IMG/VR virus record: IMGVR_UViG_3300045988_182880
Location: 1 to 64,000 of that record
DNA: 64,000 nt
Origin: a virus
Strand: one strand, 5' to 3'
Positions within the stretch are counted from its first letter, which is position 1. Each line of letters starts with the position of its first letter. This document shows positions 33,283 through 62,194 of this stretch, piece by piece. A model generated the notes under the pieces. The model saw nothing but the letters and a program-made list of their open reading frames with translations. It did not search any database and had not been told where the DNA came from. Made by a program: the position numbers and the translations under genes.

Positions 33283-33808
33283 TGTTCCGACTTACTCGGC
33301 ACTGAAAGGTGCAATGGATTCTATCTACAAACATGTCGGTATGGAAGCAATTCCTTCGGCAGTGTACATTCACTCTCCCATTAAAAAGACCCGTATCCTG
33401 CTGCGAAACATTGAGAATATCGGAGGAATACGGTCCCGCGAATGCTTAACGGATGTTTGCTACACGGTCGTTGTACGAATCGTGAGAATGGACAACATGG
33501 CCTTGGAGAGTGACCTCGCAGTGCAGTACAGAAATTTCTTAGAATATGTTTCCGATAGCTGTGGGATGGGATATCCGTATCTTGGCGTGATGGAAACACC
33601 CATGTATTTTCATCCTGTGGCGGAAACGGAAATTCTTCCAACACTGCCCATTACCGCTGACTTGTGCAATATGCCTTTGACACCGGATTATACGAACAAA
33701 TTTGAACCGGATTTGGTTTGTAGGCATCTTCACATTGAGAATGGTATCATCGATTTTACGAAAGGGGAGTATTTTCGCTGCTATGGATATTCTGAATGCG
33801 CTGGTTAA
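33257..33808 (+). CDS. cas5: Cas5 (Cas5d/Cas5c, type I-C family), N-terminally short; overlaps NADAR gene by 26 nt
   Basis: TYDVPTYSALKGAMDSIY matches Cas5d SYSVPTYQALKGIAESIY, and DVCYTVVVRI matches DVHYQVKAHF. An in-frame stop at 33221-33223 fixes the start. Confidence 0.7.
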   Translation: MRSEGTTYDVPTYSALKGAMDSIYKHVGMEAIPSAVYIHSPIKKTRILLRNIENIGGIRSRECLTDVCYTVVVRIVRMDNMALESDLAVQYRNFLEYVSDSCGMGYPYLGVMETPMYFHPVAETEILPTLPITADLCNMPLTPDYTNKFEPDLVCRHLHIENGIIDFTKGEYFRCYGYSECAG

Positions 33809-35729
33809 GCACTATGATGCGATGGCAGCAGCTGGAAATGCAACGCCTTTCGGCTGGACACACAAGTTTGCTCAGTATGCCGTCGAACTAAACGATGACG
33901 GGGAAATCGATAGGATTTTCGCTCTCGGTGATTTATCCGATAAAAAGAACAAAGGCGAGGAATTCGAGATGCCAACACGCAGGCCACGGTCTGGCAAGCT
34001 GCCGATTCCGTATGTGTTCTGTGATGATGCGGAACATCTTCTCGGCAAAGTCGGTGAAGCGAGCAATCTTGTTCGATACACTATGATGCGCGACGCAGTC
34101 TTTATGCTGCGTGACCTGTTGGGACATTCTAAAGCCTTAGATGTCGTCTACAAGTTCTACGAAACGTGGGACCCAGAAAAGGCGCTTGACAATAAATGTG
34201 TCAGCGACGTAATGGAGGCGAAAGGCCAGGAAAAGAAAACCTTTATCCTGTTCTACAATGGCGTTCCAGTTTTTGATGATGAGACATTTCGCAAAAGCTA
34301 TGCGGCGATTGTCAATAAATATGGGGAAATGCCGATTGATACACTCAAGGGCGGTGAAATTGCTCTGTTGCCGGAACCTATCAGGATTCGAAGCATGATA
34401 AGCGGCAATATCGGGTTTAAGGCTCGCTTGTTTCGAGCCATCACGGCATGGGGAAACAAAAAGAATGGCCCGGTCACAAACACTCTTTTGTCCAACAACA
34501 AAGCAAACACCGAGTATTTCGGACGTCAGCAGGGCAACGCCATCCCCATCACAATGCAAGATGAACATAAGATTTACGAAGCGGCTACAGATTTGCTCAG
34601 CTCCAAGCATCGGTTTTCGGTCCCGGTCACTTCACAGTCGCTTTATTCAAAGAACCAAATCATCTGGTCGGATGATATGCCGACAAAGCTAGAAGACGCG
34701 GTCATTGACCTGTGCTGCTGCCGTAGTGATAAAGCCAAAATTATCTCTCAGGCAAATGAATCGGGTTCTGAGACCACTATCAGAATCCTTGAAAAAGCAA
34801 AACTCTATCAGGGACGAATCACGGTTCTTTCGGACACTGAAAAAAACTTAGTCGTCAACGTTTGGAATCTTGATATGAATGATAAGGGATGTTCTGCATC
34901 CAGCTTTACACAGATGACGCTTGGCGAGCTGCTTGGAAACTTTGCCAAGCATTACACTGACATGGAAATTGACCGAAGCCAGACTTGCCGAGATGCGGAT
35001 GGAACCAGCCGAGATTTTGCAAGAGCCATCAACATCTACAACTCACTTTTCGCCAAGAACAGTGATGGAAGCACGAATTCTTTCAACAACGCTCTTTGGA
35101 AACAACTGAGTATCAGCATTTATTCCGGAACAAAGTATCCGGAGCAAGTCCTTTCCCTGGCACTGCTTCGGTCCTGCCGTTTGCTTCAGCAAAATAAGAA
35201 AGGCAAAGAAAATCGCATCACGGCGTCTTTGGCCGGTATCACAAAAGCGTTCTTGATTCGCAATTACGGGGAGAATATGACCATGGGACTCGACCAGAAC
35301 AACACCAGTCCTGCTTATATCACGGGACGAATCTTCGCGCATATGGAAAGTGCGCAGAGAAAGATTGACCCCAACAACCAAACCACTTACGCTAAACGGT
35401 TCTTTGAGCGAGTTATGATGAACCCGGCAAAAACCATGCCGGAGCTTCACAAGAGTTTCCTTCTTTTGAAGAACAAGGCTAAAGCGAATGGCATGAGAGG
35501 TCTTTATAATTCCTGCGACAAGAAAATTATGGCTCTTATCGATATGCTGGATGGCAACTATCCCGACCATCTATCCGAAAAGCAAAAAGGTGAATATCTC
35601 GTCGGATACTATCAGCAGCGAAGCGCAAACATCAAGGATGCCGAGGAGAAGAAAAACCGGAAAGCCGCCAAAATTGAAACTAATAATACGGATACTGCGA
35701 CAACCGTTGCAACACAAAAGGAGAAGTAA
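33783..35729 (+). CDS. cas8c: Cas8c (Csd1) large subunit, type I-C
   Basis: AAAGGGGAG RBS before the ATG at 33783. MDILNALVKHYDAM...PFGW...ELNDDGEI...PIPYVFCDDAEHLLG matches the Cas8c N-terminal consensus ILQALYDYYER...P.G...iD.dG...vP...lwD...YvLG. Confidence 0.8.
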   Translation: MDILNALVKHYDAMAAAGNATPFGWTHKFAQYAVELNDDGEIDRIFALGDLSDKKNKGEEFEMPTRRPRSGKLPIPYVFCDDAEHLLGKVGEASNLVRYTMMRDAVFMLRDLLGHSKALDVVYKFYETWDPEKALDNKCVSDVMEAKGQEKKTFILFYNGVPVFDDETFRKSYAAIVNKYGEMPIDTLKGGEIALLPEPIRIRSMISGNIGFKARLFRAITAWGNKKNGPVTNTLLSNNKANTEYFGRQQGNAIPITMQDEHKIYEAATDLLSSKHRFSVPVTSQSLYSKNQIIWSDDMPTKLEDAVIDLCCCRSDKAKIISQANESGSETTIRILEKAKLYQGRITVLSDTEKNLVVNVWNLDMNDKGCSASSFTQMTLGELLGNFAKHYTDMEIDRSQTCRDADGTSRDFARAINIYNSLFAKNSDGSTNSFNNALWKQLSISIYSGTKYPEQVLSLALLRSCRLLQQNKKGKENRITASLAGITKAFLIRNYGENMTMGLDQNNTSPAYITGRIFAHMESAQRKIDPNNQTTYAKRFFERVMMNPAKTMPELHKSFLLLKNKAKANGMRGLYNSCDKKIMALIDMLDGNYPDHLSEKQKGEYLVGYYQQRSANIKDAEEKKNRKAAKIETNNTDTATTVATQKEK

Positions 35730-35731
35730 CA

Positions 35732-36694
35732 ATGTCTGAACTCGTTAAGAATCCTATCACCATTGTTCTAGCGTTTGATGCGCAGAACTGTAATCCCAAT
35801 GGGGACCCCGACAACGACAACAACCCGCGTCAGTTTGAGGATGGAATCGGGTACATGTCGTCCGAAAGCATCAAATATAAGATTCGCAGCTACATCCGTG
35901 ACAAGGTCTTGTTTGACGGTCTGGAAAAGAACAGCTATGCACTATATTGCAGCCCCGATACTTTTTCCATTGAGCGCAGCGTTAAAGAGTGCCTGGAGCC
36001 TATCATCGGCAAAAAAACCAAAGGCATCCCCGATGACCAACAGCTGGAGGCTTATAAAGAGCTGTGCCGGTACTACTATGATACTCGCATGTTTGGGCTT
36101 GTGAATACGAGTTATTCCAACTGCAGCCTTCTAAGCCGCATCAAGGGTGCCTGCCAGGTATCTATGCCGATGTCCTATGACCCTATCGAAATCATCCCGA
36201 TGACGATTACTCGCTGCTGCGTTGCTTCCGATGCTGAACGCAAAGGCGAAGATAAAGGCGCCAAGAAGGGCGTCAGTATCGACGAAAGCGACGATGGAGC
36301 CGAAAAGAAGACGAAAGACCGCATGATAGGCCGTCGAAGCATTATCAGATATGGGCTGTATCACATGAGCATTCAAATCAACAGTGCAATGGCACAGCGT
36401 AACGGTGTTACGATGGATGACGTTAATTTGTTGATTGATGCGCTGCAGCATATGTTCGAGGAAGATATGAGCTCCAGCAGAGCCCTAACGCTGCGTAAGT
36501 TGATTGTCGTTGAGCACACCAAACCGATGGGAAATGCTTATCGGGACACCATTGAGCGGGCACTGGCGGCTCGACTGAAGCAACCTAATGATGCACCTAC
36601 ATCTTATGAGGATTACGAGGTGACTTATCACCGCGAAATGCTGCCTGATGAGGTCAAGGTGACTGAGTATAATTATAACAGTCAAAGCGTTTGA
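35732..36694 (+). CDS. cas7: Cas7 (Csd2) backbone subunit, type I-C
   Basis: IVLAFDAQNCNPNGDPDNDNNPRQFEDGIGYMSSESIKYKIRSYI carries the hallmark NPNGDPD...PR...G...S...KRKIR motif of Csd2/DevR. Confidence 0.85.
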   Translation: MSELVKNPITIVLAFDAQNCNPNGDPDNDNNPRQFEDGIGYMSSESIKYKIRSYIRDKVLFDGLEKNSYALYCSPDTFSIERSVKECLEPIIGKKTKGIPDDQQLEAYKELCRYYYDTRMFGLVNTSYSNCSLLSRIKGACQVSMPMSYDPIEIIPMTITRCCVASDAERKGEDKGAKKGVSIDESDDGAEKKTKDRMIGRRSIIRYGLYHMSIQINSAMAQRNGVTMDDVNLLIDALQHMFEEDMSSSRALTLRKLIVVEHTKPMGNAYRDTIERALAARLKQPNDAPTSYEDYEVTYHREMLPDEVKVTEYNYNSQSV

Positions 36695-46641: not shown

Positions 46642-46800
46642 ATGAGCAAATTATACATTAACGGCAAAGTTGTGCAGAACGCTATTGGCTGGCGCTTGAC
46701 CGCAGTTCCCGAACTGGGTTGGGCTATTTTGTTCAGTGATGGCACACAGAGCTTTATTCCGAAAACAGAAATCAAATCCATTTACAAAGGAGATGAATAA
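46642..46800 (+). CDS. Small protein (52 aa) immediately upstream of radical-SAM gene
   Basis: MSKLYINGKVVQNAIGWRLTAVPELGWAILFSDGTQSFIPKTEIKSIYKGDE. The stop overlaps the RBS region of the next gene. Confidence 0.3.
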   Translation: MSKLYINGKVVQNAIGWRLTAVPELGWAILFSDGTQSFIPKTEIKSIYKGDE

Positions 46801-46801
46801 C

Positions 46802-47542
46802 ATGCACATTTGCAGTGTGAGCAATGTGGTCATAGAAATCACGCGCCGGTGCAATATGTGCTGTGCGCACTGCATACGCGGAGATGCCGAAAATGTCGAT
46901 ATTCAGGAAAAATACATCGACGCTTTTCTCGATAGCTTCGATAAAGGCGCTTGTATCAGCTCTATCGTCTTTAGTGGCGGAGAAATCTCTCTGAATATCC
47001 CGGCAATTCGGTATATTCTGAAAGCCGTCAAAGAGCGAAACATCTCGGTTGGCAGCTTCTATATGGTCACCAATGGCAAGGCTGTCGATAAGATGGCGGA
47101 CCTTGCTCTCGCGAGTCTTGAGTGGTGGAATTACTGCGACAACAAAGACGACGATATGTGCGGCCTTTGTGTCAGCAGCGACAACTTCCACGAGAAAATC
47201 CCGCATGAAAGCGAAGGCTTCTTTAGTGGCTTGAAATACAGCCACGACGATAAGGTGACGGACTTTCGCTTTCATTCCCTTATCAACGAAGGCCGCGCCA
47301 AAACCATCAATTCGAGTCTCTACAAAAAATGCGAACCATGTGTGAAAAAGCTTGAATACAGAATCAACGAAGACAGCGGTATCGATTTCTGGTGCAGCGA
47401 AATGTACCTGAACGCTGTTGGCGACGTTGTTTCCGGTTGTGACTGGTCCTATGAGTCACAGAAGAAGTACCGTCTTGGCAATGTGATGGACAAGAACTGG
47501 CTGGATAATATTCCCGACAGCGAATGGTGCATTGCGAACTAA
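46802..47542 (+). CDS. Radical SAM enzyme with C-terminal Cys-rich (SPASM/twitch-like) region
   Basis: The CxxxCxxC cluster is RRCNMCCAHC. A GGE motif FSGGEISL is present. The C-terminal cysteines sit in CDNKDDDMCGLC...CEPC...C...C. Confidence 0.65.
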   Translation: MHICSVSNVVIEITRRCNMCCAHCIRGDAENVDIQEKYIDAFLDSFDKGACISSIVFSGGEISLNIPAIRYILKAVKERNISVGSFYMVTNGKAVDKMADLALASLEWWNYCDNKDDDMCGLCVSSDNFHEKIPHESEGFFSGLKYSHDDKVTDFRFHSLINEGRAKTINSSLYKKCEPCVKKLEYRINEDSGIDFWCSEMYLNAVGDVVSGCDWSYESQKKYRLGNVMDKNWLDNIPDSEWCIAN

Positions 47543-50454: not shown

Positions 50455-50982
50455 ATGTCAAACAAAGAAGAACGCATTAACCGCAATAAAAGCATCATCG
50501 AAGATTACAAAAATGGAAAGTCGATTTTAGAAATCTCGTGGAAATATAATCTCTCAGAAACAATGTGCTACAAGATTCTAAAAGGCACGCAGGAGCCGCC
50601 TCGTTATTTTGAAAAAAAGGGGAAGAGACTTACCGCTCGAAATGAGCAAATTGTTAAACAGTATAAAGGCGGTATGACGGCCAGAGAATTGGGCAAGATG
50701 TACGGCATTTCCATGCAGCGTATTTATGCAATCTTGCATTCGAGCGGAGAGTACGAAAGCCAAAAATACAATCATATTGAAACGGCTCTCAAAAAAGAGA
50801 AAAAGATGCGGAACCAAACTTTTCTTGATGCTTACAAGAAAAATCCTCAAAAATCGATTATCGAGTTGAGCAGGGAGGTAAATATCAGCCCTTCACTAGG
50901 TTACCTTATCCTTCATCAAAATGGGATTTACCAGTATAACGTAAAAACCAGAGCCAAGGAGAATAGCGAAAATGCCGATTAA
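50455..50982 (+). CDS. Protein made of three tandem 45-aa HTH modules
   Basis: Three repeats of the type IIEDYKNGKSILEISWKYNLSETMCYKIL. Confidence 0.5.
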   Translation: MSNKEERINRNKSIIEDYKNGKSILEISWKYNLSETMCYKILKGTQEPPRYFEKKGKRLTARNEQIVKQYKGGMTARELGKMYGISMQRIYAILHSSGEYESQKYNHIETALKKEKKMRNQTFLDAYKKNPQKSIIELSREVNISPSLGYLILHQNGIYQYNVKTRAKENSENAD

Positions 50983-51484
50983 CAAGATTACCCACGTGTG
51001 TCTAACTCATGACAAAGTCAAAGCACGAAATGAAAAGATGCTGGAGGATGCCAAGGACGGTATGTCCCAGGAACAGCTGGCTGAAAAGTATCAAATCTGT
51101 GTTTCTACTGTCCGATATAGTCTGAAGGACTTTTACGAAGAACAGGCCCGACAGAAGAAGGCAAAGAAGGAAGCCTGGCAAACCCAGATGATTCATGAAT
51201 ATGAGATGGGCGCAAAATCTCCGGAGCTTCAGGAAAAATACGGCATCAGTGGAACGCTCTTTTATCGGATTCTTCATGCGCACGGAAAGAATGGCCGACA
51301 AATCCACAGCCAAAACCGTATCGAGACTGGCAAGAAAAGAAATGCCGAGATGGTCAGGAAATACAAAAACGGCGTTTCTGTCAAAGAGCTTGCGCAAGAA
51401 TACGGGCTCAAAAAGGGAAGCGTATATCGCGCCATGAAGCGGTATAGTCCAGGCCCCAAAAAAAGCAAAAAGTCGGCAAAGTGA
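50972..51484 (+). CDS. Protein made of three tandem HTH modules
   Basis: Three repeats of the type LEDAKDGMSQEQLAEKYQICVSTVRYSL. Confidence 0.5.
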   Translation: MPINKITHVCLTHDKVKARNEKMLEDAKDGMSQEQLAEKYQICVSTVRYSLKDFYEEQARQKKAKKEAWQTQMIHEYEMGAKSPELQEKYGISGTLFYRILHAHGKNGRQIHSQNRIETGKKRNAEMVRKYKNGVSVKELAQEYGLKKGSVYRAMKRYSPGPKKSKKSAK

Positions 51485-52449
51485 GAGGTGAGTACGTGGT
51501 TGCATCAAAGAAAGATGTTGCGAAGCAGCAGGTAAAAGAAGACCGCGAAAAGGTCCGGGAAATGTATCTTTCTGGCAAAACTGTCAAGGAAATCGCCAAG
51601 GAAACGTATTTTTCAAGCTCTTATTGCTATGCCATGGTGAGAGACCTAGCGAAAGAAAAGAATCTTGCAAAGAAAGCAAAAAGAGCACCTCTCAACGAAG
51701 CTATGATTCAAGATGCGAAAGCCGGGATGACGGTTGCTGAAATCGCAAAGAAGCATGGCGTGACCTATCAGCAGTGCTACTATACTGTTTCTGAATACGC
51801 TCAAGCTACGATTAAGAAGAACAAGAAAAAGCAGTCTGCTGCCACGAAAGTTCGCAATGCGGCTATGTTGGAAGATGCGAAAGCCGGAATGACTGATAAG
51901 GAAATCGCCAAAAAATACTTTTTGTCTCGAAGTAGTGTTCGTACCGTCCTTGCAGGGCATTTACATACAAATTCCAAAAAGTTGGATGAAAGGCGCAAGG
52001 CGATTCTTGCGGATTATGAGGCAGGAACGTCCTCAAAAGACATCTGTGAGAAATACGGTATTTCAAAATCCACTCTTTACAAGGACATGCGCCAAGTTGG
52101 AAAAACCTGTCAGGAATACTATCACAAGGCGCTGAAAGACAAGACCAATCAAAGGAATTCCGATATTCGAAGCAAAATCGAAAGAGGGGTCTCGGTCAGC
52201 ACTATTGCCAAGGAATACGGAATCTCTAAAACGGCGATTTATGAAACCTTTCATCAGGAAAATGTCAGAGCTGGAATTTTGCAGAAACGCGGCCGTCCGC
52301 GAAAAAACACGGAACGTAATGCACTGATTGCTAAACGCCACAGGGAAGGCGAGGCAATACAGGCACTTGCTACCGAATATAATCTCTCTATTTCGACGGT
52401 AAACACTATTTGCAGCAGAAACAAAAATCAGAATATTGCATCATATTAA
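51481..52449 (+). CDS. Protein made of six tandem HTH modules
   Basis: Six repeats of the type (E/Q)DAKAGMT(D/V)KEIAKKY...S(T/S)V(R/Y). Confidence 0.5.
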   Translation: MRGEYVVASKKDVAKQQVKEDREKVREMYLSGKTVKEIAKETYFSSSYCYAMVRDLAKEKNLAKKAKRAPLNEAMIQDAKAGMTVAEIAKKHGVTYQQCYYTVSEYAQATIKKNKKKQSAATKVRNAAMLEDAKAGMTDKEIAKKYFLSRSSVRTVLAGHLHTNSKKLDERRKAILADYEAGTSSKDICEKYGISKSTLYKDMRQVGKTCQEYYHKALKDKTNQRNSDIRSKIERGVSVSTIAKEYGISKTAIYETFHQENVRAGILQKRGRPRKNTERNALIAKRHREGEAIQALATEYNLSISTVNTICSRNKNQNIASY

Positions 52450-52496
52450 CAGGCTGCCATTTGGCGGCCTGTTTCTTTTTTTGGAGGAAAATAACA

Positions 52497-53411
52497 ATGA
52501 CCGATGACGTACGAAATTTGATTCGATTTGTGGTGGATGGCGATATTCGAAATGCACAGACTCAGTGCCGAATCATGCTTGAAAAAAATGTCCCTGAAAA
52601 AGATGCCCGGTTTAAGGAGGCTGAACTCAAAAAGCTGAATCTTCTGAAACCGGAACTCATTCAGCTGCCTGCCAACCTGGAAAGTCTCTTGATTGCGGAA
52701 GATGCCACAAACTTCCCGGAAAGCCGGTTCCTGCTCCTTGAAGAGGAAGAAACTGTCATCAACAAGCTCTTGGCTACCAGAAAAGCAGCTCTTGCCATCA
52801 AGGAGCTTGGCATCCACTATACCTGCTCTTTGCTCTTGACGGGCCTTCCTGGCGTCGGCAAGACCGAATTGGCCCGTTACATTGCACACAAGGCAAATTT
52901 GCCGTTTGTTTTCCTGAAATTCTCTGGCTTGGTCGATTCCGCTCTTGGTCGTACACAGCAGAATATCGGCAGGGTATTCGACTATGCAAAACGCACGCCT
53001 TGCGTTCTCTGTGTTGACGAAATTGATGCCATCGGAATGTGCCGTGGCGGCCGCGATGACGTCGCTGAAATGAGCCGTGTCACCATTGCTTTGATGCAGG
53101 AATTGGACCGGCTCCCAAACGATGTCATTCTCATCGGCACCACTAACCGCGTCGATAATTTGGATGAAGCGCTCATTCGCCGATTTACTTTCAAACACCG
53201 GGTTAAGCCTTTAAGCGACGATGACATGAAAGAGCTGTGCAAGAAGTTCCTTGCTTCGGCAGACTACCCCTTCACGGAATCTGAACTTGACGAGCTCTGT
53301 CATTTGCTCCGTGAGCAGCGGACTGCCAGCGCCGTTGTCAATGCTTGTACAGAACATATCGTTGCACATATCGTATCGCAGATGCCTGAAAATACGGCGG
53401 ATGCCCTGTAA
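52497..53411 (+). CDS. Classical AAA+ ATPase
   Basis: Walker A is GLPGVGKT and Walker B is VLCVDEIDA. The SRH segment IGTTNRVDNLDEALIRRF is present. Confidence 0.75.
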   Translation: MTDDVRNLIRFVVDGDIRNAQTQCRIMLEKNVPEKDARFKEAELKKLNLLKPELIQLPANLESLLIAEDATNFPESRFLLLEEEETVINKLLATRKAALAIKELGIHYTCSLLLTGLPGVGKTELARYIAHKANLPFVFLKFSGLVDSALGRTQQNIGRVFDYAKRTPCVLCVDEIDAIGMCRGGRDDVAEMSRVTIALMQELDRLPNDVILIGTTNRVDNLDEALIRRFTFKHRVKPLSDDDMKELCKKFLASADYPFTESELDELCHLLREQRTASAVVNACTEHIVAHIVSQMPENTADAL

Positions 53412-55115: not shown

Positions 55116-55683
55116 CGAGCACTGTGCTTTCGACAGCAAGCCAATCAAGCGTATACAGTGGGTGCGTTTTCTTGGGAAGGACTAACCATAGGGGCAAAAA
55201 GATTCCATTGCCGACCTGTACGCAAAGAGTGGTGCCGTGGTTTCACAGGTGGGTTCGGCTAAAGATTTGCTGACTTTCCTGCAATCTGCCGGAACCACAA
55301 GGCATTTTTGATGCGCTTGCCCAAACCACTAGATATAGTGGTATCTTAATGTTTGTTTACAATTTAGACACTATATATTGTGTCTTTTCATTGACCGGAT
55401 ACCACATATATGGTATAATACAATTGTTCTCAGGAAGAGGAACGGCTCCTGAGACATCAAGGTTTTCCTTTCCCCAATCTTGGTCGCATGGCTTCATTTG
55501 AGCTGACACAGGTGAAGCGTGAAAATCATCCGTTTCATAGTAATATCCTTCCTTTCTTACCTCTTTATTTCCCATTTGGCGCGGGTAACTCCGCGCCAGC
55601 CGTTCAAACAAACAGCCTCCACGCGGCGGACGGTGGACAACAGATGTTTCCGTGTTCCGGGCATCTGGCTAATGTTTGTATTT

Positions 55684-55759
55684 GCTGGTTTAGCTCAGCT
55701 GGTAGAGCAACTGATTTGTAATCAGTCGGTCATCGGTTCAAGTCCGATTTCCAGCTCCA
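55684..55759 (+). tRNA. tRNA-Thr (anticodon UGU); acceptor stem with two U-U mismatches
   Basis: Cloverleaf: D-arm TAGCTCAGCTGGTAGAGCA, anticodon loop TTTGTAA, T-arm GGTTCAAGTCC, and CCA encoded. Confidence 0.7.
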
Positions 55760-56232
55760 GACGCTATCCGTTGGATGTATCGAAATCACATGATACGATG
55801 CTATACACAACATCTGGCGGACAGCATGCCACCCATTAAGGCGGCCTCCTCGTGGCGGGTGGTGGACAGTGACTCTAGCAGTTGCTGACGAATGTCTTAA
55901 AAGCATGCAGACGTACGAGCATCCCCGTTAAGCCGGGGCGCAGCCAGACGCGACACAGCCGTAAAGGCGGGACTGCTGCACGGCAACTGGTAAGTTTCGC
56001 CGCAGTCTCACACACAGCCCAACGACAACCGTTAACCCGATTTGACAGGGAATCAACGACAGGGCTCAAAATTTGAAGTTGACCAACACCCAAGCGCTTT
56101 CTTGGATTCTCACGCATAGTCAACGATGAGATTCGCAAGATTGTCAGGTGGTGTAAAGATGGCGTTCGGGGCCGACTACCTCCTAAACGAACATCATGGC
56201 GGGGCTAAGTGAGGGTTCACCCGCAATCTTAT

Positions 56233-56307
56233 GCAGGTATCGTATAACGGCTAATACTCCGCCCCTCCAAGGCGGAGACGCGGGTTCGACCCCCGCTACT
56301 TGCTCCA
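56233..56307 (+). tRNA. tRNA-Gly-like (anticodon UCC) with C at position 33
   Basis: The cloverleaf fits, the acceptor is gcaggta/tacttgc, and the T-loop is TTCGACC. The anticodon loop is CCTCCAA. Confidence 0.45.
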
Positions 56308-56581
56308 CACGTCGCAGTCACCGTACACCACGACGTTAAACTGGTGAGCATGGTCCACATGTGGTCCGCTGTCGAATGCCAATGGACAGCCTATAAAAGA
56401 ATCGGCAAACAGGTGCTGTGCCTGAGAGTATCCGAAAGTCCCGGTGTCAGTCGCGAATGAGACCGGAAAACGGCGGAGAGGGTACAATACAGACTCCGTC
56501 GGCGTGGCTGCCGAATGGTGCTGGACGCGGGGTTGGCTTCCTCGCTGAAGGGGTGATAACCAGCATAAAACACCCTGCCGT

Positions 56582-56657
56582 GCTAGTGTAGCTCAGTTGG
56601 TAGAGCAGCTGATTCGTAATCAGCAGGCCGTCAGTTCAAATCTGACTATTAGCCCCA
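56582..56657 (+). tRNA. tRNA-Thr (anticodon CGU)
   Basis: Canonical cloverleaf. The loop is TTCGTAA and CCA is encoded. Confidence 0.8.
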
Positions 56658-56696
56658 TTACCCGATGAAACAATAAATAGAAAGGAGATGAAACTT

Positions 56697-57080
56697 ATGG
56701 AACAGGCAATTATCAATGTTGAAGGTACGACTACCATAGAAACCGCTGCAGCAGCAAAAAAGCTGATTATGATGTTTGGCAACCGGAACATCCGCGCCAT
56801 CGCTGTCAACCGTGTAAACGACAAGAGCGACGAGGTCATTGTTGAACTTGATTTCGTACCGGGTTTGGCACCGCATCTGCACGGCTTCACGCTTCAGGTC
56901 AATGGCTTGACCTGCGGTTATGCTGGCACCGGTCCTTCCAATCTGTATGAAGTCCTGCAGGCGGCTGGCGTGAGTGAAGCTCAGGTAGCACGCGAGGACA
57001 TCACTCAGAAGAGCACAAAAACCATTCCTCTGCGCCTGGAACGTGCAGTCACACAGTACGGCGACTTCCAGTTTGCGTAA
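56697..57080 (+). CDS. Hypothetical small protein inside tRNA cluster
   Basis: AAGGAG RBS. A terminator hairpin lies at 57090-57108. Confidence 0.4.
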   Translation: MEQAIINVEGTTTIETAAAAKKLIMMFGNRNIRAIAVNRVNDKSDEVIVELDFVPGLAPHLHGFTLQVNGLTCGYAGTGPSNLYEVLQAAGVSEAQVAREDITQKSTKTIPLRLERAVTQYGDFQFA

Positions 57081-57110
57081 AGCTATTTGGCGGGCTTGAC
57101 CCGCCATCAT

Positions 57111-57186
57111 GGAGGGATAGCTTAGCTGGATAAAGCACCTGCCGCAAAGCAGGGTATCGATGGTTCGAGGCCATCTCCCTTCTCCA
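57111..57186 (+). tRNA. tRNA-like with non-canonical anticodon arm (5-bp stem + 6-nt loop CGCAAA, or 4-bp + 8-nt loop)
   Basis: Acceptor, D and T arms and CCA are canonical. The anticodon arm is 16 nt rather than 17. Confidence 0.35.
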
Positions 57187-57546
57187 TCCAGACACCCTTT
57201 CGCTTCCTTTCGCCAAAGGTATCTGGGGTATTGTACTGCATTGCGTGTAGTACGGCCAATCAGGCGCAGAACTCCGAAACCATACCACGAAGAATTTTAT
57301 CCTCTCCGCGCAGCATGGACATGCGATTTTACGGGGATAAATTCAAACCGAAATTGTGTCGAGTGGCGAAGACGGTTGCGGCACTGGCGAAGCACATATC
57401 TGCTTCGTCAACCATCTATGAGAAAGCCTCCACGTGGCAGATGGTGGGCAACGCAGCAATACTGCGGCTGATTTCTCTCCGAATCGGTATCTGAATAAAT
57501 GCAGATAAATAGACGAAAAAATCAAAAAAGCAAAGGAGTACACAGC

Positions 57547-58680
57547 ATGAGTAATCAGAAAATCATCAAAGCAATCGCAGGGATTGCAGCAGCCGGTATG
57601 ATGGCAACTTGTCTGCCTGTCGCAGCATTCGCAGCCACCGGTGACACCTATCATTTCTCTTTCAGCAACGGCTCTTCCCAGGACCTGGCTCCGGGCGGCT
57701 CTATGACGTTCCCGGCAAGCCAGTATGACTACGGCTACTGGATTACCCTGCAGGGCCATGGCGGTTACACCTACAACTACTATCCCGGCGACACTCTGCC
57801 GTACGATGCAGTTGACCAGTGGTTCACCGCTGACGGCATCACTTCCTGCTATGCGGCCGAAGGTAATCCGCGTTCCATCACCATCAACTATCAGATTGAT
57901 GGCAACACGGTGCTGACCGAGACTGATACCGCTACTTTCCCCGGCAATGTTGACGGTCAGAGTGTTGAAGCCTGGACCACCGATTCCGGTGATACTTACA
58001 CCGCATCCAGCAAGAGCCTGAACCACGACCGCCTGTTCTACTACCTGGGCGACGACATCCACGACAATGTCCTGACCCTGAAAGCCACTTCTGCATCCAC
58101 TCCCGATGATGGCAAGGATGACAACAAGGGCGATGACAAGGGTGATGTTACCAACCCCGACGATAAGGGCGACAACAAGGGCGACAATACCGGCGACAGC
58201 GGCACCACCACTCCTGATGACAAAGGTGACGTTGTGACCCCCGACAAGGACAACACCGGTAAGGACAACACTTCTACCGGCTCCAACAAGGGCAACGGTA
58301 CTACCACCACTACTCCGACCGCTCCTCGCAAGAACGTTGAAGTCTCTGAACACGGTGAAATTGCCGCCGCTATTGCCAATGGCACCTGGGGCAATGAGTA
58401 CACCGTCTGCACCAGCTGTGGCTATCACAACTGGACCCGCAAGGGTAACGTTTACGTCTGTGACCATTGTGGTCACGAAGTCCTGACTGTCAAGGGCGCT
58501 GATGGCGTCAAGGGTTATGCTGGCACTCTGGCTGGCAATGAACCCCAGTACGCTTCTACCTCTGAAGCTCAGGCTGCTGCCGAAAAGCGTGAAGCCGCTT
58601 ATGCTGCTTCTATCGCTGCTCTGCAGGCACAGGTTGCCGCTCGTGAAGCTGCTTATGCCGCTTCCCTGGGCATCCACTAA
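57547..58680 (+). CDS. Secreted/cell-surface protein with KGD-rich low-complexity region and C-terminal CxxC...CxxC zinc-ribbon-like segment
   Basis: The signal peptide is MSNQKIIKAIAGIAAAGMMATCLPVAAFAAT. The KGDDKGD repeats are present. The zinc-ribbon segment is CTSCGYHNW...CDHCGHEV. Confidence 0.5.
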   Translation: MSNQKIIKAIAGIAAAGMMATCLPVAAFAATGDTYHFSFSNGSSQDLAPGGSMTFPASQYDYGYWITLQGHGGYTYNYYPGDTLPYDAVDQWFTADGITSCYAAEGNPRSITINYQIDGNTVLTETDTATFPGNVDGQSVEAWTTDSGDTYTASSKSLNHDRLFYYLGDDIHDNVLTLKATSASTPDDGKDDNKGDDKGDVTNPDDKGDNKGDNTGDSGTTTPDDKGDVVTPDKDNTGKDNTSTGSNKGNGTTTTTPTAPRKNVEVSEHGEIAAAIANGTWGNEYTVCTSCGYHNWTRKGNVYVCDHCGHEVLTVKGADGVKGYAGTLAGNEPQYASTSEAQAAAEKREAAYAASIAALQAQVAAREAAYAASLGIH

Positions 58681-58760
58681 TTTGCCATCCTCTGACGGTA
58701 ATCGATAGTTTTTTCTCCTTGGAATGGGGCGAGGTTTTGGCCTCGCCTCATTTCTTTTGT

Positions 58761-58849
58761 GGTCAGGTGCCCGAATGGTTTAAGGAACTGGTCTTGAAAA
58801 CCAGCGACGCTAAAAACGTCCGTGGGTTCGAATCCCACTCTGACCGCCA
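58761..58849 (+). tRNA. tRNA-Ser (anticodon UGA), class II
   Basis: Long variable arm. The loop is CTTGAAA and CCA is encoded. Confidence 0.8.
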
Positions 58850-58962
58850 GATTTTGCCGGGGCTTCCCGGCTTTTTGTTTTTGTGAGTAACACAAGAAAA
58901 TGAGTTGCTGTATCGAATAGAGCAAAGTATACTAAGGAAAAAGCAGATTGAGAGGAAACGCC

Positions 58963-59667
58963 ATGACAAAACAGTCTGACATCGAAATGGTTGCCAAAGC
59001 CAGAGCTTGGGCTATTAAGGCTCATGCTGGGCAAAAGGACAAAGCGGGAAAGGACTATTTCCAAGCACACGTTGCGGTCGTGGCGGAGGGAGTAAAAGGA
59101 GACCCTGTGGCCGAAGCGGTGGCGTTTCTGCATGATACAATCGAGGATACAACAGTCACCATAGCAGATATCAGAACGGGGTTCCCAAAAGAAGTCGCTG
59201 ATGCTGTAAAAACACTGACCCATAGCAAAGGTGTGCCGTATGCCGAGTATCTTTGGTATATCCAGCAAAATCCTATTGCCGTCAAAGTTAAACTCTCAGA
59301 CCTGCGCAGCAACATGGATTTGACCAGGCTCCCTCACGCTCCAACTGAAAAGGACTTGGAAAGAACCAGAAAATACAAGCGGGCATATACGATTCTATCG
59401 TCGGCGAATGGTGTAAACGCTATCAATCCGTATGCGCTGTACGACTACTTGCTGGCAAGAAACTGGAGTGTTGATAGGAAAAGCACAAGGACACCCGTTC
59501 TGGAAGCGACAGATGGCTCTACTGAAATCACGGTGCCCATCGACCTGGCTTGGGCTGACTATGAGTCCAGGATGGAAGATGCTTTAGGCGCGTTGTGCTC
59601 GTATGAGGGCGTACCACTTTCGGATGCAATAGCGCGGATTGTGGCTTGGAAGCCAGACAAACAATAA
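58963..59667 (+). CDS. HD-domain (RelA/SpoT-type (p)ppGpp hydrolase-like, small alarmone hydrolase-like) protein
   Basis: AIKAHAGQKDKAGKDYFQAHVAVVA...AVAFLHDTIEDT matches the RelA/SpoT HD hydrolase motifs. Confidence 0.55.
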   Translation: MTKQSDIEMVAKARAWAIKAHAGQKDKAGKDYFQAHVAVVAEGVKGDPVAEAVAFLHDTIEDTTVTIADIRTGFPKEVADAVKTLTHSKGVPYAEYLWYIQQNPIAVKVKLSDLRSNMDLTRLPHAPTEKDLERTRKYKRAYTILSSANGVNAINPYALYDYLLARNWSVDRKSTRTPVLEATDGSTEITVPIDLAWADYESRMEDALGALCSYEGVPLSDAIARIVAWKPDKQ

Positions 59668-59696
59668 GCATGGGCCTGCTATTATTTTTATGAAAA

Positions 59697-59726
59697 GCCT
59701 TGACTTTGCCTTTTACACATTGTATA
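59697..59726 (+). promoter_or_regulatory. Strong sigma-70 promoter TTGACT-17-TATAAT
   Basis: ttgactttgccttttacacattgtataat. This is a near-consensus match. Confidence 0.5.
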
Positions 59727-59763
59727 ATTAAGACACTGAATTTGATGAAAGGAAAAACGCACG

Positions 59764-59883
59764 ATGTTTGCTGCTATGATGAACAAACAGAATAAGTTGC
59801 AAGAGCTGTGGAGCAATTCGAATCTCTTCGGCTGTTTTGTGTTGTCTGTTTGTGCAAATCATAGTGCAATGATGGTTGAATAA
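59764..59883 (+). CDS. Small ORF (39 aa, MFAAMMNKQNKLQELWSNSNLFGCFVLSVCANHSAMMVE) with own promoter and terminator
   Basis: The terminator GCACCTGTCAGACGCACAACGCCTGATGGGTGCTTTTTT follows. Confidence 0.25.
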   Translation: MFAAMMNKQNKLQELWSNSNLFGCFVLSVCANHSAMMVE

Positions 59884-60147
59884 AATCATCCAAGTATCGG
59901 TTGTTTTCCATACTCTGCACGATATGAGCACCTGTCAGACGCACAACGCCTGATGGGTGCTTTTTTGTTGCAGAAAATCAGAATCAGGTCATTCTAATGC
60001 CGCTGTAGTAAATTCCAGCCAGGTTTATTAAAGTGTTTCGTGTTATACAAGTTGTATAGTGCGACCAATGCTCACTTTCATGCGCATCGGAAGTGAGCTT
60101 CCTCAAAACCGTGCTCCCATAAGCAAGGCACGGCAGATGCGCAACAA

Positions 60148-60223
60148 GTGCTCGTAACTCAACTGGTAGAGTAATCGACTTTTAATCGATAAGTTCGGGA
60201 TTCGATTTCCCGCGAGCGCACCA
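60148..60223 (+). tRNA. tRNA-Lys (anticodon UUU)
   Basis: Canonical cloverleaf. The loop is CTTTTAA and CCA is encoded. Confidence 0.85.
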
Positions 60224-60253
60224 TGCCCGGCAGAGTATCATCTGCCACTTTTG

Positions 60254-60329
60254 TGGGTGCATAGCTCAGTTGGCAGAGCAGCGGACCGTTAATCCGTTTG
60301 TCGCAGGTTCAAATCCTGCTATGCCCGCC
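60254..60329 (+). tRNA. tRNA-Asn (anticodon GUU) with C33 (loop CCGTTAA)
   Basis: The cloverleaf resembles E. coli tRNA-Asn except for U33C. The acceptor has one mismatch. Confidence 0.65.
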
Positions 60330-60332
60330 ACA

Positions 60333-60410
60333 TGCTCCTCTGGTGGAATCGGCAGACACAGTGCGCTCAAACCGCACTTATTTGAGGGTTCAAGTCCCTC
60401 GGGGAGTACC
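60333..60410 (+). tRNA. tRNA-like, anticodon CAA (Leu-type) but short variable arm (class I)
   Basis: Acceptor gctcctc/ggggagt, T-loop TTCAAGT, 6-bp anticodon stem, and CCA encoded. It is a paralogue of the element at 60520. Confidence 0.35.
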
Positions 60411-60440
60411 ATGTCCGGCAGTACAACAACTGCCACTTGT

Positions 60441-60516
60441 GGGTTGTTAGCTCAGCTGGCAGAGCAACGGACCGTTAATTCGTAGGCCGCAGGTTCAACC
60501 CCTGCACAACCCGCCA
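60441..60516 (+). tRNA. tRNA-Asn (anticodon GUU) with C33 (loop CCGTTAA), perfect acceptor stem
   Basis: Canonical cloverleaf with CCA encoded. Confidence 0.75.
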
Positions 60517-60519
60517 TAT

Positions 60520-60594
60520 GCTCCAGTGGCGAAGCTGGCAAACGCAGCGGATTTAAGTCCCGCTTATTTCTGAGTTCGACTCTCAGCTGGAGCA
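60520..60594 (+). tRNA. tRNA-like, anticodon UAA (Leu-type) with short variable arm; no encoded CCA
   Basis: The acceptor gctccag/ctggagc is perfect. The T-loop is TTCGACT. Confidence 0.35.
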
Positions 60595-60602
60595 TTAAAT
60601 AT

Positions 60603-60675
60603 AGGGGTGTAGCTCAAGTGGTAGAGCAGCGGTCTCCAAAACCGCGTGTTGCATGTTCGAGTCGCGTCGCCCCTC
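60603..60675 (+). tRNA. tRNA-Trp (anticodon CCA)
   Basis: AGGGGTGTAGCTCAAGTGGTAGAGCAGCGGTCTCCAAAACCGC matches the bacterial tRNA-Trp pattern. A terminator hairpin follows at 60687-60725. Confidence 0.7.
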
Positions 60676-60827
60676 CTGCCACAACAAGAAAAGCCGTCCT
60701 CGCAAAAGAGGCGGCTTTTTGTTTTGAATAGTATACAGACTAAAAAAACTAAACCACAAGTTGATTGCAGATTCACAAAAACATGGTATAATAATATCAG
60801 AACGAAACGAAAGGAGATACCCCAAAA

Positions 60828-60967
60828 TGCTGTGCAACACTGTTAATGTCATGTCGTATGAGTATAGTTACGAATATTCTGAGTTCATGTCCTTTGAACG
60901 CAGTTTTATTTCTCATACTCCTCGACAGGCAAAAACAGACCATGTACAGATGCGGTGCGTCTTCTAA
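60828..60967 (+). CDS. Small ORF (46 aa, MLCNTVNVMSYEYSYEYSEFMSFERSF...) with RBS and terminator
   Basis: AAAGGAG RBS. The terminator GGCAGGCAGCTTTTTTGTTGCC follows. Confidence 0.25.
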
Positions 60968-61051
60968 GCGATAACTGCATGTCATAGCTGCTTGTCGAGA
61001 TTTCGGCAGGCAGCTTTTTTGTTGCCTGCAATACAGAAAGGCAGCAAGAAA

Positions 61052-61273
61052 ATGAACGTTCCTACTATCGATATTCAGAAAACCGGTGCCAACATTAAGA
61101 CGCTGCGAAAAGCAGCAGGTATCAAGGTGAAAGATGTGGCAGATACACTCGGCGTATCCACGCAGGCAGTTGCCAAATGGCAAGCTGGAACCGCGCTTCC
61201 AACCATTGATAACCTTGTGATATTGGCAGCGATGCTGGATACCAAGATAGATGACATCTTAGTCATCGCATAA
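61052..61273 (+). CDS. XRE-family (Cro/CI-type) HTH transcriptional regulator
   Basis: IKTLRKAAGIKVKDVADTLGVSTQAVAKWQAG is the classic XRE HTH. Confidence 0.6.
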   Translation: MNVPTIDIQKTGANIKTLRKAAGIKVKDVADTLGVSTQAVAKWQAGTALPTIDNLVILAAMLDTKIDDILVIA

Positions 61274-61300
61274 TCCCCGCCGCATGATGCGGCATCATAT

Positions 61301-61377
61301 GGCCTGCTCGACGAATTGGTCAAGTCGTCAGTTTCTCAAACTGAAGGTTGTGGGTTCGACTCCCGCGCAGGTCACCA
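61301..61377 (+). tRNA. tRNA-Glu (anticodon CUC)
   Basis: Cloverleaf with acceptor ggcctgc/gcaggtc and loop TTCTCAA. CCA is encoded. Confidence 0.6.
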
Positions 61378-61380
61378 TGT

Positions 61381-61456
61381 GCTTCTGTAGCTCAGCTGGT
61401 AGAGCAGTGGTCTGAAGAACCGCGTGCCGTTGGTTCGATTCCAACCGGAAGCACCA
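61381..61456 (+). tRNA. tRNA-Phe (anticodon GAA)
   Basis: Canonical cloverleaf with loop CTGAAGA. CCA is encoded. Confidence 0.9.
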
Positions 61457-61459
61457 CAT

Positions 61460-61544
61460 GTGTCGGTATGCAAGAGGTTAAAGCAGGCAGTCTGTAAAAC
61501 TGTTCCGTTACGGTTCGCTGGTTCGAATCCAGTCCGACACACCA
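61460..61544 (+). tRNA. tRNA-Tyr (anticodon GUA), class II
   Basis: The loop is CTGTAAA. A long variable arm is present and CCA is encoded. Confidence 0.8.
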
Positions 61545-61548
61545 ATAT

Positions 61549-61622
61549 GGCCCCTTCGACAAATTGGTCCAAGTCACCACGCTTTCACCGTGGAGTTAGC
61601 AGTTCGAGTCTGCTAGGGGTCA
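61549..61622 (+). tRNA. tRNA-Glu (anticodon UUC), no encoded CCA
   Basis: The loop is CTTTCAC. The D-arm is similar to the tRNA at 61301. Confidence 0.75.
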
Positions 61623-61654
61623 CTACGTCGCACCTACGTTAAAAGGTGCATTAT

Positions 61655-61744
61655 GCAGAGGTCGCCTAACGGTAGGGCAGCAGCTTGCTAAGCTGCCGTC
61701 GCGGAAATCGCGGCATGTGAGTTCGAATCTCACCCTCTGCGCCA
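61655..61744 (+). tRNA. tRNA-Ser (anticodon GCU), class II
   Basis: The loop is TTGCTAA. A long variable arm is present and CCA is encoded. Confidence 0.85.
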
Positions 61745-61747
61745 TCT

Positions 61748-61832
61748 GCTTGCTTGTCCGAGAGGTTAATGGAATCGGTCCAGAAAACCGACGATGGGAA
61801 ACTGTCCGAAGGTTCGAATCCTTCAGCAAGCG
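61748..61832 (+). tRNA. Class II tRNA-Ser-like with unusual anticodon loop CCAGAAA (C33, A34; anticodon AGA?)
   Basis: The acceptor gcttgct/agcaagc is perfect. A long variable arm is present. The terminator at 61838-61880 follows. Confidence 0.5.
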
Positions 61833-62194
61833 TCACTGCCCTCATTCTGTGCGGTATCCGTGCAGGTGAGGGCTTTTTCTTTTGCTTTTCGCTTCGAATT
61901 TCGGACCCGAATGGCGTTAATGGTCGGGTATTCCTGATTGTACATGCCCTTGCTATATGGCAAATAGCTCCAAACGGTATTGGTTTTCATGCCCATTTCT
62001 TCTGCAATTTCCGGAACCGACATACCGTTCGAACGCATCTTTCCGATTTTTTCTGATGTTTCATCTGACCAGGCCCCGGCCGTAATCAATATTTTGCGCA
62101 CTTTCTGCAATGAGATGCCTGCACGTTTGGCAATGGTTCTTCTAGGTATACCTTGCTCATGGAGACGGAGAACCGTCTGCATTGTCACGTCCAT
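61823..62194 (-). CDS. HTH-domain protein (resolvase/sigma-70 region-4-like modules)
   Basis: RRTIAKRAGISLQKVRKIL and MSVPEIAEEMGMKTNTVWSYL HTH modules. The 3' end overlaps the tRNA, so the true stop may be earlier. Confidence 0.4.
   Translation of the reverse strand: MDVTMQTVLRLHEQGIPRRTIAKRAGISLQKVRKILITAGAWSDETSEKIGKMRSNGMSVPEIAEEMGMKTNTVWSYLPYSKGMYNQEYPTINAIRVRNSKRKAKEKALTCTDTAQNEGSDAC

Follow-up and report, generated by a model that had tools for sequence, protein, structure and literature searches.

In the 64,000-nucleotide stretch of viral DNA analysed here (the window, positions 1-64,000 of IMG/VR record IMGVR_UViG_3300045988_182880), 17 tRNA genes, all on the + strand, form an island between positions 55684 and 61834. 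They follow one another in the order Thr-UGU, Gly-UCC, Thr-CGU, a gene with a 6-nucleotide (nt) anticodon loop, Ser-UGA, Lys-UUU, Asn-GUU, Leu-CAA, Asn-GUU, Leu-UAA, Trp-CCA, Glu-CUC, Phe-GAA, Tyr-GUA, Glu-UUC, Ser-GCU, and Ser-AGA, as called by ARAGORN with the concurrence of Rfam family RF00005, whose model matches each of them over positions 1-71 as a full-length cloverleaf with 46.4 to 67.7 bits, the gathering score being 29. An original prediction, made from the sequence without database searches, had listed a tRNA cluster with two Thr, one Gly, three Ser, one Lys, two Asn, one Trp, two Glu, one Phe, and one Tyr tRNA plus three odd elements, and both programs agree with that list; the three "tRNA-like" elements are the 6-nt-loop gene and the Leu-CAA and Leu-UAA genes, which have a short variable arm. 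Here, we describe that four of these tRNAs carry C at position 33 of the anticodon loop, that a fifth lacks this position, and that the state of position 33 appears to be held by isoacceptor across the phage family to which the window belongs.

Few bases in biology are as conserved as U33, and the reason for this conservation beyond formation of the U-turn is debated. In the island, 12 of the 17 tRNAs have a 7-nt loop with U33, a feature that nearly all tRNAs share but that does not define them. C32-C33 is found in tRNA-Gly(UCC) (56233-56307; loop CCUCCAA, U73, CCA encoded, 56 bits), in both copies of tRNA-Asn(GUU) (60255-60330, 61.5 bits with one non-standard pair flagged, and 60441-60516, 63.4 bits; both with loop CCGUUAA) and, followed by A34, in tRNA-Ser(AGA) (61748-61834; loop CCAGAAA, G73, long variable arm, 46.5 bits). 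The covariance-model alignments and the ARAGORN structure strings both place these bases at 32 and 33, confirming the four loops that had been read by eye as CCTCCAA, CCGTTAA (twice), and CCAGAAA. A symmetric anticodon stem of 5-7 base pairs lies under each loop, so C33 is real; together with the model alignments, these stems rule out an off-by-one registration. The tRNAs described as "Gly-like" and "Ser-like" in the original prediction are ordinary tRNAs apart from C33, and A34 in the Ser tRNA.

As a baseline for U33 we used the distinct 7-nt loops of 158 unrelated viral loci. U33 is present in 883 of these 909 control loops and C33 in 21 (2.3%), which agrees with the published figure of ~97% of tRNAs having U33 (PMC11096365). 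Four C33 loops among 16 depart from the control rate with P = 4e-4, and with the two Asn paralogues merged the excess of non-U33 loops still gives P = 8e-3. Over the phage family as a whole, 50 of 289 distinct tRNAs carry C33, compared with 21 of 909 in the controls.

Relatives of the window were gathered by a protein-based search, which is blind to position 33. The 184 related viral stretches obtained in this way fall into two clades, a main one at 82-86% identity with contigs of up to 222 kb and a sister one at 60-63% with contigs of up to 389 kb, and loops were counted over 62 main-clade and 17 sister-clade loci. tRNA-Asn(GUU) has C33 in 104 of 107 main-clade copies and U33 in all 34 sister-clade copies, whereas C33 is shared by the two clades in Gly-UCC (52/52 and 12/13, respectively) and Ser-AGA (55/55 and 13/13). 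Ser-GCU has C33 in 8 of 55 main-clade copies and U33 in the one sister-clade copy; Glu-UUC has U33 in all 68 main-clade copies and C33 in 5 of 14 from the sister clade; and C33 is present in one main-clade copy and 13 sister-clade copies of a Met-CAU tRNA whose loop is CCCAUAC and which has a C1-A72 mismatch. Counted as distinct sequences, C33 is found in 10 of 10 Ser-AGA, 7 of 9 Gly, 24 of 35 Asn (the sister-clade sample contributing none), and 4 of 10 Met-CAU tRNAs, the last all with loop CCCAUAC and, in the three listed, the C1-A72 mismatch. It is absent from the ~150 distinct Phe, Tyr, Lys, Trp, Leu, Ser-UGA, Thr-CGU, and Glu-CUC sequences, and throughout the family position 33 holds pyrimidines only, never A or G. 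A neutral site would be mixed, and because the state is instead fixed by isoacceptor, the sequences indicate that position 33 is not neutral in this family.

The change keeps arising, as is shown by a few recent C33 variants on near-identical Glu-UUC, Gln-UUG, Ser-GCU, and Thr-UGU backbones. Counterparts that differ in the loop are available in the sister-clade Asn genes and in one Gly lineage, which have U33. Both Asn genes of the window align to the single U33 Asn gene of the sister clade, and the module of Asn plus Leu is a tandem duplication at 73% identity. Since the homologous sister-clade genes carry U33, C33 in Asn is the derived state; the U-to-C change predates the duplication, and both copies have kept it.

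Are these genes maintained, or are they decaying copies? Among 14 divergent C33-Asn sequences, 98.6% of stem cells are paired and 14 of 21 pairs have changed on both sides; the corresponding values are 99.2% and 13 of 26 pairs for Ser-AGA, and 97.3% and 16 of 22 pairs for Gly-UCC, including all six anticodon-stem pairs. The Ser-AGA loop is invariant on three backbones with different anticodon stems. Because the stems keep pairing through compensatory changes, the C33 genes look like maintained, working-type tRNAs with a heritable, conserved state and not like products of decay. The suggestion that they are pseudo-tRNAs or decoys does not fit with their scores of 46-63 bits, expected discriminator bases, mostly encoded CCA, and compensated stems. 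The alternative that all C33 members would prove to be ordinary, high-scoring tRNAs common in the lineage is borne out in part: they score highly and are common among these phages, yet outside the lineage they are out of the ordinary. Small lesions specific to the window are seen relative to the clade majority, namely a C6-A67 mismatch and a G5-U68 pair in the first Asn copy, and the window Ser-AGA gene ends in TCA where relatives end in CCA.

Beyond the family, we searched for the C33-Asn anticodon arm together with the T loop. This pattern occurs in 91 viral stretches, ~79 of which belong to the window's phage family, and the remainder, from unrelated phages, show three or more further tRNA-Asn backbones. 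In a census of one genome per species, covering 185,579 bacterial and archaeal species and tRNA-Asn with a CGGA/UCCG anticodon stem only, the same pattern gives 7 matches, of which at least four are not tRNAs and 2 are clearly C33 tRNA-Asn. One of the two is a lone C33 tRNA-Asn in Nioella; the other lies in an 18-tRNA array on contig CAWKKG010000047.1 of an Actinomycetota metagenome-assembled genome (locus L144, 5088-7097), in which Val-UAC, Asp-GUC, Asn-GUU, and Leu-CAG have C33. The Asn tRNA of this array resembles the tRNA-Asn of cluster C1 mycobacteriophages listed in PMC10264068, and published tables of mycobacteriophage Val tRNAs also contain C33, unremarked. The proposal of variants specific to mobile genetic elements is thus upheld for Asn: with 91 viral stretches against 7 pattern matches in the species genomes, C33-Asn with this anticodon arm is a recurrent, phage-specific variant.

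A fifth anomaly, missed by the original prediction, is the tRNA gene at 57111-57186 (U73, CCA encoded, Cys-like, 46.4 bits), whose 6-nt loop C-GCAAA leaves a model gap at position 33. For GCA to be the anticodon, the missing base must be position 33, a placement to which the model gives a posterior of ~0.5-0.6. The place between Thr-CGU and Ser-UGA is taken in the sister clade by a tRNA-Ala(UGC) with 78% identity to the 6-nt-loop gene and the same anticodon stem. Compared with this tRNA-Ala, the window gene has lost G3-U70, has exchanged A73 for U73, and now has GCA in its loop; in our reading of the alignment it also shows paired double changes at 6:67, 13:22, and 51:63. Because U73 and GCA were gained while three stem pairs were repaired, an identity switch is favoured over decay, and the gene is most likely a tRNA-Ala gene remoulded toward Cys identity and not a dead gene; the Cys identity itself is inferred from U73 and GCA only. 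All 132 homologues have the same 6-nt loop, no 7-nt-loop relative being found among them, and variation within the clade is hence uninformative; 53 copies are present in the main clade and none in the sister clade.

The tRNAs with U33 complete the island. Upstream lie tRNA-Thr(UGU) (55684-55759; loop UUUGUAA, CCA encoded, 63.5 bits), tRNA-Thr(CGU) (56582-56657; loop UUCGUAA, 67.7 bits), and tRNA-Ser(UGA) (58761-58849; loop CUUGAAA), the last followed by a terminator-like hairpin at 58856-58871. tRNA-Lys(UUU) (60148-60223; loop CUUUUAA, 64.9 bits) precedes the Asn and Leu genes. Both Leu tRNAs combine a Leu-type D arm and A73 with a variable region of 6 nt, which gives them a class-I shape that is conserved in both clades; they are tRNA-Leu(CAA) (60334-60411, 48.4 bits) and tRNA-Leu(UAA) (60520-60595, with the start taken from Rfam, 50.1 bits), in the latter of which CCA is not encoded and the anticodon stem has an A31-C39 mismatch at its base. 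tRNA-Trp(CCA) (60603-60676, 51.3 bits) has a 3-nt "cct" insertion before CCA when compared with relatives L002 and L021. The downstream block consists of tRNA-Glu(CUC) (61301-61377, 58 bits), tRNA-Phe(GAA) (61381-61456, 65.8 bits), tRNA-Tyr(GUA) (61460-61544; loop CUGUAAA), which retains U33 despite its GUN anticodon, tRNA-Glu(UUC) (61549-61623), whose backbone is found with C33 in some sister-clade phages, and tRNA-Ser(GCU) (61655-61744), for which a subgroup of relatives combines C33 with a compensatory stem change.

Promoter-like sites and several terminator-like hairpins split the island into blocks. One sigma-70-type promoter-like site (55391-55419, +; TTGACC-17-TATAAT with an upstream TG, 11/12 consensus matches), assigned by consensus match only, stands ahead of the first tRNA block, and another (59700-59728, +; 11/12 consensus matches) stands ahead of a tiny open reading frame (ORF) and the Lys-Asn-Leu-Asn-Leu-Trp block. 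Three candidate ribozymes resembling that of hepatitis delta virus (HDV-like) on the + strand were matched to RF02682, which has a gathering score of 44. The first (55599-55679) scores 48.4 bits and ends 4 nt before tRNA-Thr; the second (55828-55895), 68 nt 3' of the same tRNA-Thr, scores 28.8 bits, below the gathering score; and the third (57411-57478), at 42.1 bits just under it, lies 224 nt 3' of the 6-nt-loop tRNA and ~70 nt upstream of the next ORF. The second candidate sits at a junction where relatives have an extra module of ribozyme, Asn(U33), and Met, and by BLAST against relative L295 the window is without ~630 nt at this point. The layout of a ribozyme followed by a tRNA recurs in L295 and L340, and HDV-like ribozymes in relatives score 45-60 bits; examples are found at 4165-4245 and 4394-4468 in L295 and at 8892-8964 and 12578-12652 in L340, often preceding a tRNA by 4-15 nt. 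One HDV-like ribozyme of L340 is abutted by a weak tRNA-like element.

Four larger ORFs, all on the + strand, are interspersed among the tRNA genes. A 130-amino-acid (aa) ORF (56688-57080) is conserved in both clades, with 78% nucleotide identity to L340; it has no Pfam, PHROG, or PADLOC match, and its single-sequence AlphaFold2 model is unusable (pLDDT 36). A 377-aa ORF (57547-58680), likewise without a Pfam, PHROG, or PADLOC family match, has a signal-peptide-like N-terminus, a low-complexity middle rich in D, K, G, and T, and a C-terminal part with a CxxC...CxxC pattern, and is followed by a terminator-like hairpin at 58721-58754. The ORF at 58963-59667 matches PF13328 (HD_4) and, over residues 14-151, PDB entry 7smg, a "(p)ppApp hydrolase" (E = 1e-24), which suggests a small-alarmone-hydrolase-type, (p)ppApp-hydrolase-like protein, here called Aph1-like. 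It is present in the 184 related viral stretches, the exact protein occurs on metagenome contigs of up to 145 kb, and an extra C-terminal domain (residues ~150-232) matches the N-terminus of the PADLOC candidate PDC-M02B. Toxins of the toxSAS group pyrophosphorylate the CCA ends of tRNAs, and hydrolases of the Aph1 type can counter them. Finally, a Cro/CI-type regulator with an HTH_3 domain (60992-61273; PF01381, E = 5e-11) lies between tRNA blocks.

The original prediction placed the array at the edge of a mobile element, as in an integration hot spot. Relatives show otherwise: the island lies mid-contig on contigs of 95-222 kb, including ENA contigs of 95-145 kb, and on IMG/VR contigs of up to 389 kb; downstream of it, phage genes continue with AcrVA2-like and lysozyme genes. 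Its flanks are of phage type (late activator, HNH, AcrVA2-like, lysozyme). The island is therefore an internal tRNA island of a family of very large phages. Capsid and terminase genes were not seen in the parts examined.

What could be gained by replacing U33? The action of the enzyme TGT gives Q34. Several enzymes that act on the anticodon loop read position 33: TGT needs U33-G34-U35 in a 7-base loop (PMC8136771), E. coli TsaBCDE fails to put t6A37 on a U33C tRNA (PMC8887486), TadA recognizes U33-A34-C35-G36 and makes base-specific contacts to U33 (PMC10586758), the eukaryotic Elongator requires U33 (PMC11096365), and the nucleases PrrC and RloC cleave 3' of U33 (PMC2610378). It has also been proposed that phage tRNAs evade host tRNases via changes in the anticodon loop (PMC10264068), and the tRNA-Lys of phage T5 escapes PARIS (PMC11464382, PMC12409363). 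We therefore tentatively propose that C33 acts as an anti-determinant, keeping selected phage tRNAs from host enzymes that read U33, that is TGT, the t6A machinery, and possibly nucleases; we regard this as the best of the readings, though one we would not call probable. Since TGT and TsaBCDE read U33, C33 should deprive Asn of Q34 and t6A37 and may block further enzymes, while the pyrimidine at 33 should still allow decoding. The result would be a private pool of under-modified, possibly nuclease-resistant phage tRNAs. Counter-defence would be the likely benefit, with a changed reading of the wobble position as a second possibility; the Aph1-like hydrolase, the NADAR-domain protein of the window, and the AcrVA2-like genes downstream in relatives are genes that would fit with counter-defence. 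A broader version, in which U33-to-C changes or, in one case, deletion of U33 serve as a general "off switch" that hides chosen viral tRNAs from Q34 insertion, t6A37 synthesis, wobble deamination, and cleavage of the PrrC/RloC type, seems doubtful to us. The virus would then have a private decoding set, under-modified and insensitive to nucleases, which would include the Ala gene remoulded to a 6-nt-loop tRNA-Cys. If true, it would amount to a new principle in the phage-host conflict over tRNA and a natural test of the reason for the universality of U33.

Several observations weigh against the proposed anti-determinant role. Among anticodon nucleases, U33C has been tested with two, colicin E5 (specificity YGUN) and gamma-toxin; both cleave C33 substrates normally, so that escape from either of them is ruled out as the benefit. 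Escape from PARIS is ruled out as well: AriB recognizes U36AAUC|A41, which lies across the loop, and this exact site is kept in the Thr-UGU tRNA of the window. Asn, Gly-UCC, Ser-AGA, and Cys have no one modification or known nuclease in common, and Tyr (GUA) and Lys (UUU) keep U33. Moreover, because the main clade is shallow, the persistence of Asn C33 and the 6-nt loop inside it counts for little by itself, and the census of species genomes covers a single type of Asn anticodon stem.

One rival is tolerated drift, in which a pyrimidine at 33 is near-neutral in the host and U-to-C transitions have hitch-hiked in a successful lineage without a function of their own. Only transitions are seen in the family, A or G never being found at 33; rare polymorphic C33 occurs on Glu-UUC, Gln-UUG, and Thr-UGU backbones at a Hamming distance of 1-3; C33 is also present in 2.3% of the control phage tRNAs and in mycobacteriophage Val tRNAs; and the main clade is shallow. 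The unchanged cleavage by colicin E5 and gamma-toxin may, weakly and indirectly, point to a loop that tolerates C33. However, drift does not readily explain fixation by isoacceptor, with C in 10 of 10 Ser-AGA sequences on three backbones and in none of ~150 sequences from eight other isoacceptors, nor that both Asn paralogues have retained C33 over 27% divergence, nor that C33-Asn occurs on at least four unrelated phage backbones and is near-absent from 185,579 species genomes. We thus find drift unlikely, while taking it seriously. In Mycoplasma, C32 together with an unmodified U34 in tRNA-Gly(UCC) has been linked to four-way reading. C33 might likewise have been selected to alter codon reading, through an unmodified G34, U34, or A34 or a changed U-turn, so that Gly-UCC would read all four codons or Asn would prefer AAC, without any role in defence. 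The island has one Gly tRNA (UCC, with C32) and a Ser tRNA with an unmodified-type A34, and enzymes that modify positions 34 and 37 require U33 (PMC8887486, PMC8136771, PMC10586758, PMC11096365), all of which is in line with such tuning; but Tyr-GUA in the same island keeps U33, so that avoidance of Q34 is not general, and we consider tuning of decoding by itself rather improbable.

If the C33 and 6-nt-loop genes stood outside translation, they could be decaying copies, or mimics that soak up host enzymes or toxins. In a reading of the sequence, the CGCAAA loop could close as a GCAA tetraloop, and it has no 7-nt-loop relative; the window also has lesions that would suit decay, in the C6-A67 mismatch of the first Asn copy, the 3-nt insertion in Trp, and TCA in place of CCA in Ser-AGA. 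Yet scores of 46-63 bits, correct discriminators (U73 in Gly; G73 in Ser and Asn), mostly encoded CCA, and compensated pairing are hard to reconcile with genes that have left translation, as is the joint gain of U73 and GCA in the 6-nt-loop gene during repair of three stem pairs; pseudo-tRNAs or decoys therefore appear highly improbable. The chance that the loops are mis-registered or that C is an assembly error is negligible, given the symmetric stems, the agreement of covariance model and ARAGORN, and the presence of the same bases in >90 independent contigs from several assemblies.

Among 50,697 phage records, no close isolated relative of the window was found, and matches were tRNA-sized only. 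Its genes include helicases, an HNH endonuclease, late-activator-like regulators, TnpB-like genes, a Cas8c-Cas7 pair, and a NADAR-domain gene. One helicase has 51% amino-acid identity to that of Faecalibacterium phage FP_Lugh, which is the best lead to a host. Because of this match, matches to human faecal phage contigs, and a ribozyme family of F. prausnitzii type, the sequences hint weakly at a human-gut origin and a Bacillota host.

Several other features of the window and its relatives deserve mention. The NADAR-domain protein (32791-33282; PF08719, E = 8e-27) is encoded just upstream of the cas genes; the NADAR family reverses ADP-ribosylation of DNA, and this protein may be an anti-DarT counter-defence gene product. 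The phage-borne Cas8c (PF09709, E = 3.5e-69) and Cas7 (PF05107, E = 1.4e-53) genes are adjacent to each other and lie beside a ResIII/DEAD helicase (33702-36694, also 33257-33808 and 30015-32210); no CRISPR array was found in the 64-kb window, including beside the cas genes, and Cas1, Cas2, and Cas3 were not recognized there. An AAA ATPase (52410-53411) strongly matches the PADLOC IetA model (E = 6e-56). No phage-encoded tRNA-modifying enzyme or nuclease was recognized in the window, where a radical SAM protein (46736-47542) matches no specific family. Just upstream of the island, three consecutive ORFs (50455-52449) have Mor/late-activator-like helix-turn-helix repeats, and internal direct repeats lie within them at 51580-51926. 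Two IS605 OrfB/TnpB-like genes are present in the window (8463-9923, +, and 14586-15695, -) and a HEARO (omega-type) RNA lies inside the tRNA island of relative L295 (7976-8234); TnpB elements therefore seem to be active in this phage family. In sister-clade phages with contigs of 240-389 kb, the homologous island contains a transfer-messenger RNA (tmRNA) gene (RF00023, 82-88 bits; L333 11645-12044, L340 11644-12043, L343 11641-12040, and L349 15310-15710), with the tag DNNRYASPIAA in L340. Seven main-clade loci of the L275 type have a tRNA with a Gln(UUG) backbone (cgaggattcgccaaacggtaaggcatcagg...) and the anticodon UUC, a one-base switch from Gln to Glu that is possibly a second case of identity remoulding in the family.

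How do these findings relate to known systems? Phage tRNA islands and escape variants in the anticodon loop are already known. In full-text literature searches, we found no report of a phage family with an isoacceptor-specific, conserved, and repeatedly arising U33-to-C change, of a tRNA without position 33 remoulded from tRNA-Ala, or of C33 in tRNA-Asn as a recurrent phage-specific variant. The family offers natural, matched pairs of homologous U33 and C33 tRNAs, as well as one tRNA without base 33, with which it can be tested whether C33 uncouples a tRNA from host modification enzymes or anticodon nucleases, and whether phage tRNA islands serve counter-defence rather than codon supply. C33 tRNAs could also serve as orthogonal or nuclease-resistant parts.

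The island resembles the tRNA clusters of large phages, such as T4, T5, cluster C1 mycobacteriophages, and huge phages, in being a dense array on one strand with small interspersed ORFs and its own promoters and terminators, which here are promoter- and terminator-like sequences. It differs from them in its 5 of 17 non-canonical anticodon loops, class-I-shaped Leu tRNAs, candidate HDV-like ribozymes, and alarmone-hydrolase-type gene. Remoulding of tRNAs, or alloacceptor shift, is best known from organelle genomes. As in those cases, the gene in a conserved slot of the island seems to have switched its anticodon and identity elements, from Ala to Cys-like, with the fold kept; the difference lies in its 6-nt anticodon loop. 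Theta and minimal HDV-like ribozymes (Kienbeck et al, 2024, PMC10879173; RF02682) are likewise HDV-like motifs in phage tRNA clusters, and one window candidate reaches the Rfam gathering score. However, theta ribozymes lie directly 3' of tRNAs, often suppressor tRNAs without CCA (PMC10879173), whereas the window candidates precede a tRNA by 4 nt or follow one at 68-224 nt, CCA is encoded in most of the tRNAs, and suppressor tRNAs are absent.

Phage tRNAs that escape defence (van den Berg et al, 2023, PMC10264068; T5 tRNA-Lys and PARIS, PMC11464382, PMC12409363) share with those described here differences in the anticodon arm of intact tRNAs and the proximity of counter-defence genes. In the window family, however, the change, to C or by deletion, falls on the near-invariant U33 and not on known sites of cleavage or recognition (for example 36-41), no nuclease is known that would match, and colicin E5 and gamma-toxin tolerate C33. 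The initiator tRNA-Met of multicellular eukaryotes provides another natural example of a conserved C33 in a functional tRNA, and C33 has been shown experimentally to be an anti-determinant for the bacterial and yeast t6A37 enzymes (PMC8887486). In the family, a Met(CAU) tRNA that combines a C1-A72 mismatch with the loop CCCAUAC (C33, C38) is conserved on three backbones (L340 5681-5755, other sister-clade loci, and L022 4584-4658); in our own reading, its C1-A72 mismatch is initiator-like and its C33 recalls the eukaryotic initiators. In contrast to the single initiator tRNA of eukaryotes, it is the elongator tRNAs for Asn, Gly, and Ser of a bacterial virus that carry C33 here.

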